The position numbers were made by a program, and so were the translations under genes. From the sequence record PQ349265.1: DNA of 64,000 nucleotides, one strand, 5' to 3'. The notes beneath the pieces are model-generated. The model did not search any database and had not been told where the DNA came from. It was given only the letters and a program-made list of their open reading frames with translations. Shown piece by piece: positions 2,382-44,458 of the stretch. The stretch comes from Escherichia phage CJY920. The first letter of the stretch is position 1; every line of letters begins with the position of its first letter.

Positions 2382-3161
2382 ATGAATTATACTAAAGTAT
2401 ATAATAATTTAATTAAGAAAGGAAAACTCAGAAAATTAGATAAATCTAAATTAAATTTTTATACGGAAAAGCATCATATTATTCCATCTTGTATTGGTGG
2501 TAATGATGATTCTGATAATTTAGTTTTATTAACAGCTAGAGAGCATTTTATAGCCCATTGGCTTTTAGCTAAAATTCATTATAATTCGCCTGGATTAATT
2601 TATGCATGGTGGTCATTTTATAATTTTGGAGAAGATTCTTTAGGAAGAAATCTCAAATTAACTTCAAGAGGATATCAGTTAGTTAGAGAAAAATTTTCAA
2701 AAATACATTCTAATACAATGAAAGAAATGTGGAAGTCTAATGAATACAGAGAAAAACGTTCGATAACATTAAGTCTTCCTGAAATAAGGGCTAAAATTTC
2801 AGAATCCCAGTTAGAAGCACAAAACAAACCGGAAGTTAAAGAAAAAATATCTAAAGGGGTGAAAGCTGCTTTTAAACGACCGGGAGTTAAAGAAAAACAC
2901 TCTGCTGCAGTCAAAAAATCTTTGAATAATTTTGAAACTAAAAAGAAACAATCAAATTCATCTAAAATTAGACAAAGAACTGGTAAACATTGGCAAGACT
3001 ATGACTTACTTTATAAGTTATGGATTAAATTAAATAGACCTAAACGTGGGTCATTCGGAACTTATATAAGTAAATTAGGATATCCAAAATCTAATTATCA
3101 TCGATTGATTGTACAATTTAATGAAGATTATGAAAGGTCTAATAATGAAAACTGTAGTTAA
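2382..3161 (+). CDS. Mob-type HNH homing endonuclease (MobD-like by position)
   Basis: N-terminal MNYxKxYNxLI and HHIIP..GG...N.V.LT..EH..H HNH motif; C-terminal DNA-binding tail shared with other Mob/Seg ORFs here. Confidence 0.8.
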   Translation: MNYTKVYNNLIKKGKLRKLDKSKLNFYTEKHHIIPSCIGGNDDSDNLVLLTAREHFIAHWLLAKIHYNSPGLIYAWWSFYNFGEDSLGRNLKLTSRGYQLVREKFSKIHSNTMKEMWKSNEYREKRSITLSLPEIRAKISESQLEAQNKPEVKEKISKGVKAAFKRPGVKEKHSAAVKKSLNNFETKKKQSNSSKIRQRTGKHWQDYDLLYKLWIKLNRPKRGSFGTYISKLGYPKSNYHRLIVQFNEDYERSNNENCS

Positions 3162-4155
3162 GTCTTATTTTGGTAGTCATCTTTATGGAACTTCTACTCC
3201 AGAATCTGATGTAGATTTTAAAGAAATCTTTGTTCCTCCTGCTCGTGATATTCTTATCGGAAATGTTAAAGAGCATATGAGTAAAAACACTAATAACACA
3301 TCATCTAAAAACACTAAAGATGATATTGACCATGAACTATACAGTCTTAAGTATTTCTTTAAATTAGCAGCAGATGGTGAAACTGTAGCATTGGATATGC
3401 TCCACACTCCACCTGAACTGGTAGTTAAATCTGATTTGCCTGATGTATGGAAGTTTATTCAAGACAATCGTTCTCGTTTTTATACGACTAACATGAAATC
3501 CTATTTAGGATATGTTCGCAAGCAAGCTTCTAAATACGGTGTCAAGGGTTCTCGTTTGGCCGCATTACGTGATGTATTGAAAGTAGTTAATCAAATCCCT
3601 GACCAGTGGGTTGATTACCAAGAAGACGGTTCTATTAAGCAACGTCGAACTAAAGTTGAAGATATTAAGCATCGTCTTCCAGAAAACGAATTCTGTGAAT
3701 GGGTGTTTCATAATCATGAGAAAACAGGCCCGCAAACGTTCTATACTGTGTTGGGTCGTAAATATCAGACAACGCTTTCTCTTATTGAGCTTAAGCAGTC
3801 TTTGAATAAACTTGATGCCGAATACGGTGAACGTGCTCGTAAAGCTGAAGCTAACGAAGGCATTGATTGGAAAGCTCTGAGTCATGCTTGTCGTGGTGGA
3901 CTCCAACTATTGGAAATTTACAAAACTGGCGACTTGGTTTATCCACTCCAAGATGCTCCGTTTATTCTCGACGTGAAGCTGAGTAAACATCCATTTAAAA
4001 CTGTTCAAGAGTTTTTGGAAGATGTGGTCGATCAAGTAGAAGCAGCATCCATTGAAGCTTCTAAGAACGGTATGCAGCAAAAAGTAGACATGGGTTTCTG
4101 GGATGACTTCCTTGAAAGGGTTTATCTTGAAAACCACCGAAGTTATTATAAATGA
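3145..4155 (+). CDS. Pol-beta superfamily nucleotidyltransferase-like protein
   Basis: GSHLYGTSTPESDVDF resembles the GS-x(9-13)-DxD nucleotidyltransferase signature; start chosen at ATG 3145. Confidence 0.55.
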   Translation: MKTVVKSYFGSHLYGTSTPESDVDFKEIFVPPARDILIGNVKEHMSKNTNNTSSKNTKDDIDHELYSLKYFFKLAADGETVALDMLHTPPELVVKSDLPDVWKFIQDNRSRFYTTNMKSYLGYVRKQASKYGVKGSRLAALRDVLKVVNQIPDQWVDYQEDGSIKQRRTKVEDIKHRLPENEFCEWVFHNHEKTGPQTFYTVLGRKYQTTLSLIELKQSLNKLDAEYGERARKAEANEGIDWKALSHACRGGLQLLEIYKTGDLVYPLQDAPFILDVKLSKHPFKTVQEFLEDVVDQVEAASIEASKNGMQQKVDMGFWDDFLERVYLENHRSYYK

Positions 4156-4157
4156 TA

Positions 4158-4182
4158 GGGAGCCTTCGGGCTCCCTTTTTTG
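4158..4182 (+). terminator. intrinsic terminator (UUCG hairpin plus T-run)
   Basis: gggagcc-ttcg-ggctccc followed by tttttt. Confidence 0.65.
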
Positions 4183-4204
4183 TTTAAAATGACGTCACAA
4201 AGTT

Positions 4205-4234
4205 GTTTACTTCTGCCGCAAAGCATATTATAAT
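4205..4234 (+). promoter_or_regulatory. early sigma70-type promoter
   Basis: GTTTAC -35 and TATAAT -10. Confidence 0.55.
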
Positions 4235-4280
4235 ATATGTGTAGTTAATTAATTGCTCTTTAAAAATTGAGGAGAATACA

Positions 4281-4766
4281 ATGCATATTTTAATGCAATG
4301 CCTTGGCAACAAAATTAATGATTTTAATCATAAGCGTGTTAATGATTACATTAAAGACAAACTTGAGATTAAAGACACACTTTTTAGAGGACTTACAATA
4401 GAGGAAGTGCTATCTTATAAGTTTGAAGTTAATAGGAGAATCAAATTTAAAAGAATAACTTCCTTTAGCAGTGAGTCTCATATAGCTGAAACGTTTGCGG
4501 CAGAACGCTATATGACTAATGTTTTAGTAGTGTTAAAAAATGCAAACGTTTTCGACTATTCGACTGCTATGATTGACATTTTAGAAAATTTAATCGCAAT
4601 TGAAGAATCTGGTCAAATTGACGATGATAAGCTTAACAAGCTTTATGATAACCTTTGTATGGTAGATTATGAAAGAGAGTTTTTACTGCCAATTAATTCT
4701 GAGTTAATAGTTAAAAACATATATTTTGATAGCAAAAAGAACATGCATATAGTAGAAATGGAATAA
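4281..4766 (+). CDS. Mod-like mono-ADP-ribosyltransferase paralog (R-S-E motifs)
   Basis: LFRG (Arg), SFSS (STS motif), EREF (ExE) in ModA/ModB-like spacing; VFDYSTAMIDI aligns with ModA AFNYSDHISDI at 43284; GAGGAG SD. Confidence 0.6.
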   Translation: MHILMQCLGNKINDFNHKRVNDYIKDKLEIKDTLFRGLTIEEVLSYKFEVNRRIKFKRITSFSSESHIAETFAAERYMTNVLVVLKNANVFDYSTAMIDILENLIAIEESGQIDDDKLNKLYDNLCMVDYEREFLLPINSELIVKNIYFDSKKNMHIVEME

Positions 4767-4776
4767 ATCAACACAA

Positions 4777-4802
4777 AGGGGGCCCTAGAGGTCCCCTTTT
4801 TA
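4777..4802 (+). terminator. intrinsic terminator-like hairpin plus T-run
   Basis: GC-rich imperfect stem (aggggg..cccct) followed by tttttatttc. Confidence 0.5.
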
Positions 4803-4826
4803 TTTCAAAAATTTTTTCACAAAACG

Positions 4827-4856
4827 GTTTACAAGCATAAAGCTTTATGGTACTAT
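4827..4856 (+). promoter_or_regulatory. early sigma70-type promoter
   Basis: GTTTAC -35, TACTAT -10. Confidence 0.5.
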
Positions 4857-4896
4857 ACAACTATCAACTACTGATACAGATTTGGAGAATAAAATG
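4849..4896 (+). repeat. conserved promoter-leader repeat, copy A
   Basis: ggtactatacaactatcaactactgatacagatttggagaataaaatg; near-identical copies at 28451, 49856, 63419. Confidence 0.7.
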
Positions 4897-5862
4897 AAAA
4901 CTGTAACTATCAATAAGGGTATCTACTTCGGTAAAGAAATCTCTGGAACTTTTGAGCTCTTAGGCGAATGGTTCCCAGATAATGCTCCGGTAGATGCACA
5001 AGGAGATGGTAAAGTTTTTGTTGAAATTGACGGTAAACGTCGCGGTGTTTGGGTTTACAAATCAGATATTTCATATGATGGTGTAAAAGTTGAAGAAGTT
5101 AAAGAATCATATGAAGATATGAAAACCCGCATTAATAAAAGATTTAATGTTATGGGAATGATGACGAACGGTATTATTAATGGAAATATTCGTTCATTAA
5201 TTATCTCTGGCGCAGCAGGTATTGGTAAAACGTATTCTTTAGATAAAGCTTTAAATAAAGCAAATGATATTGGATACATTGAATATAAAAGCATTAATGG
5301 TAAAATCTCTGGTATTGGTCTTTATGAACAGCTTTGGAATAATCGTGAAGAGAATTCTGTCCTTTTGATTGATGATGTGGATGTTTTCTCTGATATGGAC
5401 ATTCTTAATCTTCTAAAAGCTGCTCTGGACACTGGAGAGACCCGTAAAGTCTGCTGGAGCACTGCATCTTCTTACTTAGAAGAAAAAGGCATTGACCGTG
5501 AGTTTGAATTTAAAGGAACGATTGTTTTTATCACAAACGTTGACATTGACCGCGAATTAGACCGTGGTACTAAACTTGCCCCACACTTACAAGCATTGGT
5601 GTCCCGCTCAGTTTATTTGGATTTGGGTGTTCACACTAATGAAGAAATTATGGTCAGGGTTGAAGATGTTATTCTTTCAACTGACATGATGCAAAAGCGC
5701 GGTCTTTCTAGTGAAGAAACTTATAAAGCATTATCATGGATGAAAGTTAATGTTAATCGTTTACGCAATGTTTCACTGCGTACTGCTCTTTATCTTGCTG
5801 ACTTTATTATGACCGACAAAAACGGTTGGCAAGAAATCGCTGAGGTTACTCTTCTGAAATAA
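4894..5862 (+). CDS. AAA+/P-loop ATPase
   Basis: Walker A GAAGIGKT and Walker B LLIDDVD; start at ATG after GGAG SD. Confidence 0.7.
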   Translation: MKTVTINKGIYFGKEISGTFELLGEWFPDNAPVDAQGDGKVFVEIDGKRRGVWVYKSDISYDGVKVEEVKESYEDMKTRINKRFNVMGMMTNGIINGNIRSLIISGAAGIGKTYSLDKALNKANDIGYIEYKSINGKISGIGLYEQLWNNREENSVLLIDDVDVFSDMDILNLLKAALDTGETRKVCWSTASSYLEEKGIDREFEFKGTIVFITNVDIDRELDRGTKLAPHLQALVSRSVYLDLGVHTNEEIMVRVEDVILSTDMMQKRGLSSEETYKALSWMKVNVNRLRNVSLRTALYLADFIMTDKNGWQEIAEVTLLK

Positions 5863-43234: not shown

Positions 43235-43384
43235 ATGATTATTAATCCTGCAGATGTTGAACAGTTATCTATAAAAGCTGAAAGTGTCGATTTTCAATAT
43301 GATATGTATAAAAAGGTCTGTGAAAAATTTACTGACTTTGAACAGTTCAGTTCTTTGGCAATGTATGGAAGCCAAAAAGAATGA
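43235..43384 (+). CDS. hypothetical protein (49 aa)
   Basis: ATG after GGAGG SD downstream of promoter. Confidence 0.4.
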   Translation: MIINPADVEQLSIKAESVDFQYDMYKKVCEKFTDFEQFSSLAMYGSQKE

Positions 43385-43859
43385 AGCTCTTCATCGGCAG
43401 TTGAATAAAATCATTAAAAAGCATTTAACTGAATCACCTTATCAGTTATATCGTGGTATATCAAAATCGACAAAAGAGCTCATTAAAGATTTACAAGTTG
43501 GAGAAGTGTTTTCAACGAACAGGGTAGATTCATTTACTACTAGTTTGCACACAGCGTGCGGTTTTTCTTATGTTGAGTATTTCACTGAAATAATATTTCG
43601 CTTAAAAACTGACAAAGCTTTTAATTATTCTGACCATATCAGCGATATTATACTTTCTTCTCCTAACACTGAGTTTAAGTATACATATGAAGATACTGAT
43701 GGATTAGATTCAGAACGTACTGATAACTTAATGATGATTGTGCGTGAACAAGAATGGATGATTCCAATTGGAAAGTATAAAATAACTTCTATTTCAAAAG
43801 AAAAATTACACGATTCATTTGGAACATTTAAAGTGTATGATATTGAGGTAGTTGAATGA
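43284..43859 (+). CDS. modB: Mod-family ADP-ribosyltransferase (ModB-like by order; start uncertain, possibly ATG 43365)
   Basis: LYRG, SFTTS, QEWMIP motifs in ART spacing; tandem with second Mod gene. Confidence 0.6.
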   Translation: MSIFNMICIKRSVKNLLTLNSSVLWQCMEAKKNEALHRQLNKIIKKHLTESPYQLYRGISKSTKELIKDLQVGEVFSTNRVDSFTTSLHTACGFSYVEYFTEIIFRLKTDKAFNYSDHISDIILSSPNTEFKYTYEDTDGLDSERTDNLMMIVREQEWMIPIGKYKITSISKEKLHDSFGTFKVYDIEVVE

Positions 43860-44458
43860 AATATTCAGCAATGCAATTAAAAGATTTTAAAATCAAATCA
43901 ATGGATGCATCGGTGCGTGCTTCTATTCGTGAAGAATTACTTTCTGAAGGATTTAATTTATCCGAAATTGAACTTTTAATTCATTGTATTACTAATAAGC
44001 CAGACGATCATTCTTGGTTAAATGAAATAATCAAATCTCGTTTGGTTCCAAACGATAAACCTCTTTGGAGAGGTGTTCCAGTTGAGACTAAGCAAGTGTT
44101 AAATCAAGGAATTGATATTATTACATTTGATAAAGTAGTATCAGCTTCATATGATAAAAATATAGCTCTACATTTTGCTTCTGGATTAGAATACAATACA
44201 CAAGTTATTTTTGAATTCAAAGCTCCTATGGTATTTAATTTTCAGGAGTATGCTATAAAAGCTCTACGTTGTAAAGAATACAGTCCGAGTTTTAAGTTTC
44301 CAGATAGTCATCGCTATCGTAATATGGAATTAGTTTCAGATGAACAAGAAGTAATGATACCAGCTGGAAGTGTATTTAGAATTGCAGATAGATATGAGTA
44401 TAAAAAGTATTCAACATACACTATCTATACTCTTGATTTTGAAGGATTTAATCTATAA
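43856..44458 (+). CDS. modA: Mod-family ADP-ribosyltransferase (ModA-like by order)
   Basis: 200 aa; LWRG, SASYD, EQEVMIP (ExE) motifs; ATGA overlap. Confidence 0.65.
   Translation: MKYSAMQLKDFKIKSMDASVRASIREELLSEGFNLSEIELLIHCITNKPDDHSWLNEIIKSRLVPNDKPLWRGVPVETKQVLNQGIDIITFDKVVSASYDKNIALHFASGLEYNTQVIFEFKAPMVFNFQEYAIKALRCKEYSPSFKFPDSHRYRNMELVSDEQEVMIPAGSVFRIADRYEYKKYSTYTIYTLDFEGFNL

Follow-up and report, generated by a model that had tools for sequence, protein, structure and literature searches.

Escherichia phage CJY920 carries, besides modA and modB, a third gene of Mod type (positions 4281-4766 of the window, plus strand), which we predict with a probability of about 80 % to encode a small mono-ADP-ribosyltransferase that is catalytically competent and belongs to the T4 Mod family and R-S-ExE clade; the window is the whole stretch of 64,000 nt that was analysed (sequence record PQ349265.1). 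The ADP-ribosyltransferases (ARTs) of the T-even phages are three in the textbook account, namely Alt, ModA and ModB. A fourth, the third of Mod type, is carried on a mobile cassette by the classic phage T2 and by a minority of relatives. The family assignment of this gene was already known, and our finding confirms existing annotation and is no discovery in that respect: the ortholog has been annotated as an 'ADP-ribosylase' since ACG-C40 (JN986846; UniProt K4FJU3), and it bears the RefSeq name 'RNA polymerase ADP-ribosylase' in T2, HY01, Moon and others. In the UFV-AREG1 genome paper it is listed (AREG1_00093, 'ModB ADP-ribosylase') as a 'cloud' gene, a class whose members occur in no more than 15 % of Tequatrovirus genomes (PMC10236363), and this listing is the sole mention that we found in the literature, with no functional study of the protein addressing its activity, target or expression. 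The distinct lineage of the gene, the missing N-terminal helices of its product and its transfer at the level of a cassette are absent from the literature searched, and are the incremental additions made here.

The ORF starts with ATG, encodes 161 aa (19.0 kDa, pI 5.3), and cannot be extended in the 5' direction past an in-frame TAG at 4242-4244. The R-S-E triad that a preliminary description of this DNA had read in it is present exactly as placed, with LFRG at residues 34-37 (R36 codon at 4386-4388), SFSS at residues 61-64 (S61 codon at 4461-4463) and EREF at residues 131-134 (codons of E131 and E133 at 4671-4673 and 4677-4679); R36, G37, S61, E131 and E133 are the predicted catalytic residues, and they occupy the conserved columns of the family. 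The promoter, strong Shine-Dalgarno sequence and terminator that had been ascribed to the gene were found as well. A promoter scan places an early-type sigma-70 promoter (GTTTAC-17-TATAAT, with 10 of 12 matches) at 4205-4234 on the plus strand, as a consensus match only; the Shine-Dalgarno sequence GAGGAG, read directly from the DNA, lies at 4269-4274, 6 nt 5' of the ATG; and a terminator scan places an intrinsic terminator at 4775-4801, consisting of a stem-loop (4775-4799) with a stem of 10 bp, of which 6 are GC pairs, and a T run that extends to 4801. Three terminator-like sites occur within 1.2 kb, compared with 0.5 expected from shuffled sequences. GTTTAC is the -35 consensus of T4 early promoters (PMC1524935), and the match suggests early transcription of the gene. 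At the codon level the gene is evidently under purifying selection, with a dN/dS of 0.15 relative to the T2 ortholog; against the distant relatives described below dS is saturated and dN is 0.29-0.40.

Membership of the Mod family is indicated by several comparisons. In BLASTP the 161-aa protein is 29 % identical over 146 residues to the product of the ORF at 43284..43859 (modB; E 4e-15) and 28 % identical to that of the ORF at 43856..44458 (modA; E 5e-11), and these two are themselves 27 % identical to each other (E 9e-16); the third Mod protein is therefore as similar to ModB and ModA as ModA is to ModB. The same alignments reproduce the proposed correspondence of its segment VFDYSTAMIDI with AFNYSDHISDI and VFNFQEYAI. 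PHROG 832 ('RNA polymerase ADP-ribosylase') matches the protein at E 6.5e-24 and the two canonical ORFs at 2.2e-37 and 4.1e-33, the profile region matched being the same in the third Mod protein, ModA and ModB, and a Mod-family HMM run on the six-frame translation of the window detects exactly three ORFs, which are the third Mod gene, modB and modA. In a large protein database PF26816 (Mod_ADP_RT) is pre-assigned to P0001, the 92 %-identical cluster representative, and likewise to P0002, P0003 and all other relatives. Our own Pfam and NCBIfam scans of the 161-aa ORF gave no match, which is uninformative given that ModA and ModB were not matched either. The family is small: searched exhaustively with a profile, 1.84 billion representative proteins yielded only 95 clusters at E <= 1e-3.

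The catalytic motifs are correspondingly well preserved. R36-G37 and S61 do not vary in any of three alignments of the family, with 6, 12 and 44 members respectively, and E131/E133 are nearly invariant; the patterns [FYW]RG, SxS/T and ExE are kept across all 44, including relatives that are 53 % and 61 % identical. R36-G37 align with R73-G74 of ModB, in which the substitution R73A abolishes both ADP-ribosylation and RNAylation (PMC10468400). Searching the PDB directly with the protein sequence gave a chance-level match only; a profile search of the PDB sequences weakly matched the arginine-specific toxin-type ART Vis (E = 1), with YRG, TSxS and ExE aligned in the correct order. No ModA or ModB structure was found in these PDB searches.

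A complete ADP-ribosyltransferase fold, the absence of which the preliminary description had named as evidence against its proposal, is confidently predicted for the third Mod protein. The AlphaFold2 model, built from a 12-sequence alignment, has a mean pLDDT of 90.5 and a pTM of 0.84, and the top 50 Foldseek matches to it in the PDB are all R-S-E ADP-ribosyltransferases (C3, Tre1, ExoS, XopAI, VIP2, Certhrax and Vis). When predicted viral structures are searched, the ACG-C40 ortholog K4FJU3, itself annotated 'ADP-ribosylase', ranks first (TM 0.98), and models of ModB and ModA type come next (TMq 0.78-0.88), so that the comparison with ModA and ModB that had been proposed, by HMM and by structure, places the protein in the Mod family on both counts. 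The head-packaged architecture of Alt/VIP2 type, a large protein that has a packaging or MuF-type region at its N-terminus and the ART domain at its C-terminus, was not found in this single domain of 161 aa, whose matches to Alt/VIP2-like proteins are at the level of the fold only.

The clearest structural departure is at the N-terminus. The model of ModB (pLDDT 87.2) has four N-terminal helices preceding the strand that carries R73; the third Mod protein keeps the last of these (H17-27) together with a low-confidence remnant of the third, and comparison of the models shows helices 1 and 2 and part of helix 3 to be missing. There are 32 residues before the R strand in the third Mod protein compared with 67-69 in ModA and ModB, and the length of this segment varies from 23 to 99 residues across the Mod family, from which it follows that the four-helix region is not family-wide. 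The absence of these helices could have consequences for stability or for the binding of targets. A helical hairpin (residues 93-110 and 115-131) is predicted with confidence for the third Mod protein in the stretch from F91 to the ExE motif.

T4 ModB is an NAD--protein ADP-ribosyltransferase of 207 aa that modifies S1, EF-Tu and trigger factor and carries out RNAylation (PMC10468400). The third Mod protein shares its core fold, the columns in which R-G, S and ExE stand, and a similarly acidic pI (5.3 compared with 5.5), and its gene, like T4 modB, is preceded by an early-type promoter, albeit one recognized here by consensus match only. It is 46 residues shorter than ModB, however, belongs to a separate clade and lies at another locus; it also has the well-ordered hairpin (93-131) before ExE where ModB has a low-confidence loop (147-156), and a Tyr immediately preceding ExE (D-Y-E-R-E, compared with V-R-E-Q-E in ModB). 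T4 ModA (200 aa), which ADP-ribosylates both alpha subunits of RNA polymerase according to the T4 annotation, likewise shares the motif and the fold (TMq 0.78 to the Sf22 and TG1 ModA models), while differing in its STS-like motif (SASY, where the third Mod protein has SFSS), in its longer N-terminus and in its location within the modB-modA tandem. The bacterial toxins of C3-like, Vis and Tre1 type have the ART core fold and the R / STS / [EQ]xE arrangement in common with the third Mod protein, and its ExE form matches that of arginine-specific toxins such as Vis, but identity to these toxins is only 10-16 % and TMq 0.45-0.55; unlike them, the phage protein has no secretion signal or immunity partner, and its N-terminal helical region is reduced.

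Reading of the canonical locus required some correction. The preliminary description had the ModA and ModB labels swapped: by comparison with the T4 annotation the ORF at 43856..44458 (plus strand, 200 aa, intact) is modA, and the ORF upstream of it is modB. The modB gene of the window (43235..43859, plus strand) contains a +1 frameshift caused by an extra T at 43346/43347, such that translation from the ATG at 43235 follows ModB for 37 codons, is then shifted in frame, and meets a TGA after codon 49; the ORF of 191 aa that starts with GTG at 43284 is an artefact of this frameshift. Of the 501 phage records matching modB, the best 60 each align with 700 of the 701 nt of the query; the extra T reflects either a mutation specific to this strain or an error in sequencing. 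The RefSeq record of T2 (NC_054931.1; 2152-2773 of the segment examined) also has a damaged modB, in which a 2-bp deletion at approximately codon 135, upstream of ExE, splits the gene into ORFs of 142 and 42 aa; modB is intact (207 aa) in an independent T2 record (MH751506.1), indicating that the lesion is specific to the RefSeq stock or record. We considered decay of modB as a general feature of phages carrying the third gene and rejected it, as both modB and modA are intact in nine other carriers (HMD-9, ECO07P3, W143, UFV-AREG1, F13076, EP01, GRNsp7, N2 and BW-1) and the lesions are sporadic or stock-specific. A 179-aa gene of W143, located between motB and motB.2 (542-1081 of the segment examined), is annotated as an 'adenylribosylating enzyme'; it was considered as a further Mod paralog and set aside, having no match to the Mod-family HMM at E <= 1, and it is either a member of a different family or a misannotation.

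The third Mod gene is unlinked to this tandem, as had been noted, and lies in the spacer between homologs of nrdC.11 (3145-4155; PHROG 388 nucleotidyltransferase, with Pfam RlaP in relatives) and nrdC.10 (4894-5862; PHROG 1250, with a weak AAA/clamp-loader-like match). The setting is not T4 itself: the window derives from a Tequatrovirus relative of T4, and the phages that match it best at genome scale are Tequatroviruses of mosaic make-up (24 kb compared, 93 % of it aligned at 97 % identity). T4 lacks the gene, and at the corresponding site has a bare spacer of 114 nt in which the early promoter of nrdC.10 comes directly after the terminator of nrdC.11. The ORF could therefore not be a conserved T4 nrdC.x protein without ART homology, an outcome named in advance as counting against the proposal; it belongs to a separate inserted unit.

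Alignment with the T4 spacer defines this unit as a cassette of about 620 bp (4182..4801, plus strand) comprising promoter, Shine-Dalgarno sequence, ORF and terminator. It is inserted exactly at the T run of the nrdC.11 terminator (4157..4181, plus strand; terminator scan), a stem-loop GGGAGCC-TTCG-GGCTCCC with a T run that is identical in T4 and forms the left boundary, and T4-like sequence resumes 3' of the cassette (ATTTCAAAA...GTTTACAAGC); both junctions fall at terminator T runs, and the breakpoint is ambiguous by a few bases as a result. Just outside the right boundary at 4801 is the early-type promoter of nrdC.10 (GTTTAC...TACTAT, 4827..4856, plus strand), which is common to T4. This organization is that of the PeSL (promoter-early stem-loop) cassettes of T4-type phages defined in RB49 and phi1 (Arbiol et al. 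2010, PMC2839356): a terminator stem-loop and then a strong early promoter are present on each side of the third Mod gene, the indel junctions are located exactly at these units, and presence or absence of the cassette is polymorphic at a site in a hyperplastic region. It differs in that the two terminators are similar in design and not identical in sequence.

Orthologs of at least 92 % amino acid identity are present in 43 of 50,697 phage records; for scale, the modB region is present in 501. The carriers include HMD-9 (100 % identical), T2, ACG-C40, HY01 and UFV-AREG1, as well as the Moonvirus-type phages Moon, CF1 and KM16, and the next-best matches after these 43 are at most 33 % identical and are ordinary ModB or ModA genes. 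The gene is thus dispensable, in that most Tequatroviruses, T4 included, are without it. Only two more distant relatives were found among 5.8 billion proteins. One, 61 % identical, is in the regA-gene 43 spacer of another T4-like phage (8001-8546 of the segment examined, from a 101 kb metagenomic contig); the other, 53 % identical, is downstream of an nrdC.11 homolog, as in Moon. Upstream of P0002 and P0003 there is a GTGTAC...TATAAT arrangement with 21-nt spacing. The 61 %-identical relative is followed by its own terminator, and is called as 181 aa, although it probably begins at the internal start MHILMA to give 157 aa.

Comparison with Citrobacter phage Moon indicates that the cassette moves independently of its neighbours. 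The third Mod proteins of Moon and the window are 92 % identical, whereas the flanking nrdC.11 and nrdC.10 products are 67 % and 79 % identical respectively, and the nucleotide match of the window to Moon (92 %) is limited to 4199-4819; it follows that the cassette has a history separate from that of its flanks and moves horizontally. In T2 the corresponding amino acid identities are 98 % for nrdC.11, 94 % for the third Mod protein and 99 % for nrdC.10. Horizontal movement is thus indicated by the Moon and T2 comparisons together with the relative located in the regA-gene 43 spacer.

The origin of the gene was approached with neighbour-joining trees (100 bootstraps), a distance method applied here to sequences that are short and divergent, and the groupings obtained are to be taken as provisional. 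The third-Mod clade itself has 100 % bootstrap support, and it joins P0013, P0014, P0017, P0018 and P0024 at 95 %; grouping with ModA or ModB is seen in only 1 % and 0 % of bootstraps respectively, values by which a recent duplication of modA or modB was rejected. P0013, P0014 and P0017 come from divergent T4-like phages, and each is the product of the only Mod gene there, located at the canonical soc-dda locus. The five proteins of this group (175-189 aa) are the nearest relatives outside the third-Mod clade and have the same motifs, but are only 26-31 % identical to the third Mod protein and have 43-46 residues before the R strand where it has 32; the genes of P0013, P0014 and P0017 stand alone at the soc-dda locus, in contrast to the position of the third Mod gene in the nrdC.11-nrdC.10 spacer, besides modA and modB. 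The description of the gene as a third Mod-like paralog stands as regards the family, on the evidence of BLASTP, PHROG 832 and the fold, and is loose as regards paralogy: the tree suggests that the gene is a xenolog with its source in a divergent T4-like lineage, and it is better described as a cassette-borne xenolog than as a modA or modB duplicate. The gene was probably captured from the single mod gene of such a lineage, and the cassette is exchanged horizontally.

Taken together with the signals and motifs, these observations suggest how the gene may act. Its transcription probably begins soon after infection, at the early promoter of the cassette. The enzyme would use R36, S61 and E133 to bind NAD+ and would transfer ADP-ribose to arginines of host proteins, adding a third Mod-type modifier to the phage takeover of host transcription or translation. 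Arginine-specific ADP-ribosylation is predicted from the E-x-E form of the motif, which is that of ModA, ModB and Vis. The target spectrum may differ from those of ModA and ModB; these two differ from one another in targets at comparable divergence. A further suggestion, which we advance tentatively as a possibility of less than even weight, is that this minimal Mod enzyme has a target, or a use of NAD-capped RNA, unlike those of ModA and ModB, and serves as a mobile module for host takeover or counter-defence. If this is true, then T2 and about 8 % of T4-like coliphages ADP-ribosylate a host protein that T4 does not, and the comparison of T2 with T4, or of T2 with and without the gene, would be a ready-made system for finding new ART targets.

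Several other roles have to be weighed against this one. The third Mod protein might be a redundant back-up of ModB or ModA that shares their targets (RNA polymerase alpha, or S1, EF-Tu and trigger factor) and relaxes selection on the canonical genes. It shares the family and the motif with both, and the modB of the window is frameshifted, as is that of the T2 RefSeq record with its 2-bp deletion upstream of ExE, but the nine other carriers have modB and modA intact, modB is also intact in the independent T2 record, and ModA and ModB themselves differ in targets at approximately 25-30 % identity (T4 annotation; PMC10468400); we consider redundancy unlikely. An RNAylating enzyme that attaches NAD-capped RNA chains to host proteins, as ModB does (PMC10468400), is brought to mind by the fact that ModB is the best pairwise match in the window. 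Grouping of the third Mod protein with ModB has a bootstrap of 0 %, however, RNAylation is efficient only for ModB among the T4 ARTs (PMC10468400), and the activity cannot be predicted from sequence, so that this role is assigned a low probability.

That the protein is an inactive remnant or pseudoenzyme, acting, if at all, by binding, would be in keeping with an N-terminus some 35 residues shorter than those of ModA and ModB and with a gene that is both dispensable and rare. Conservation of all the catalytic residues down to 53 % identity argues against it, as do the dN/dS of 0.15, the confident prediction of a complete fold and the existence of other family members with N-termini of 23-46 residues, and we regard it as very improbable. 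A counter-defence effector that ADP-ribosylates a host anti-phage protein, and not housekeeping machinery, would explain the patchy, horizontally transferred distribution of an accessory cassette that is located in a hyperplastic region, moves between genera and carries a gene of the rare 'cloud' class (PMC10236363). However, neither a partner nor a linked defence-related gene was seen, and ordinary cassette shuffling explains the distribution equally well, which makes so specific a role rather improbable. The reading that we prefer remains that of an active Mod-family ADP-ribosyltransferase acquired on a cassette. As a short and naturally minimal Mod enzyme the protein is a cheap and useful object for studies of target specificity, a use that is suggested by the different targets of ModA and ModB at similar divergence and by the RNAylation activity of ModB.

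The naming of these genes in public records calls for some care. Automatic pipelines label the orthologs of the third Mod gene 'modA_2' or 'modB_2', labels that are often misleading. In the HMD-9 and EP01 records the homologs of nrdC.4-nrdC.11 are labelled 'thioredoxin', and those of modA.2, modA.3 and modA.4 'molybdenum ABC transporter periplasmic molybdenum-binding protein ModA'; both are clearly name-collision errors that have been propagated from the names of the genes.
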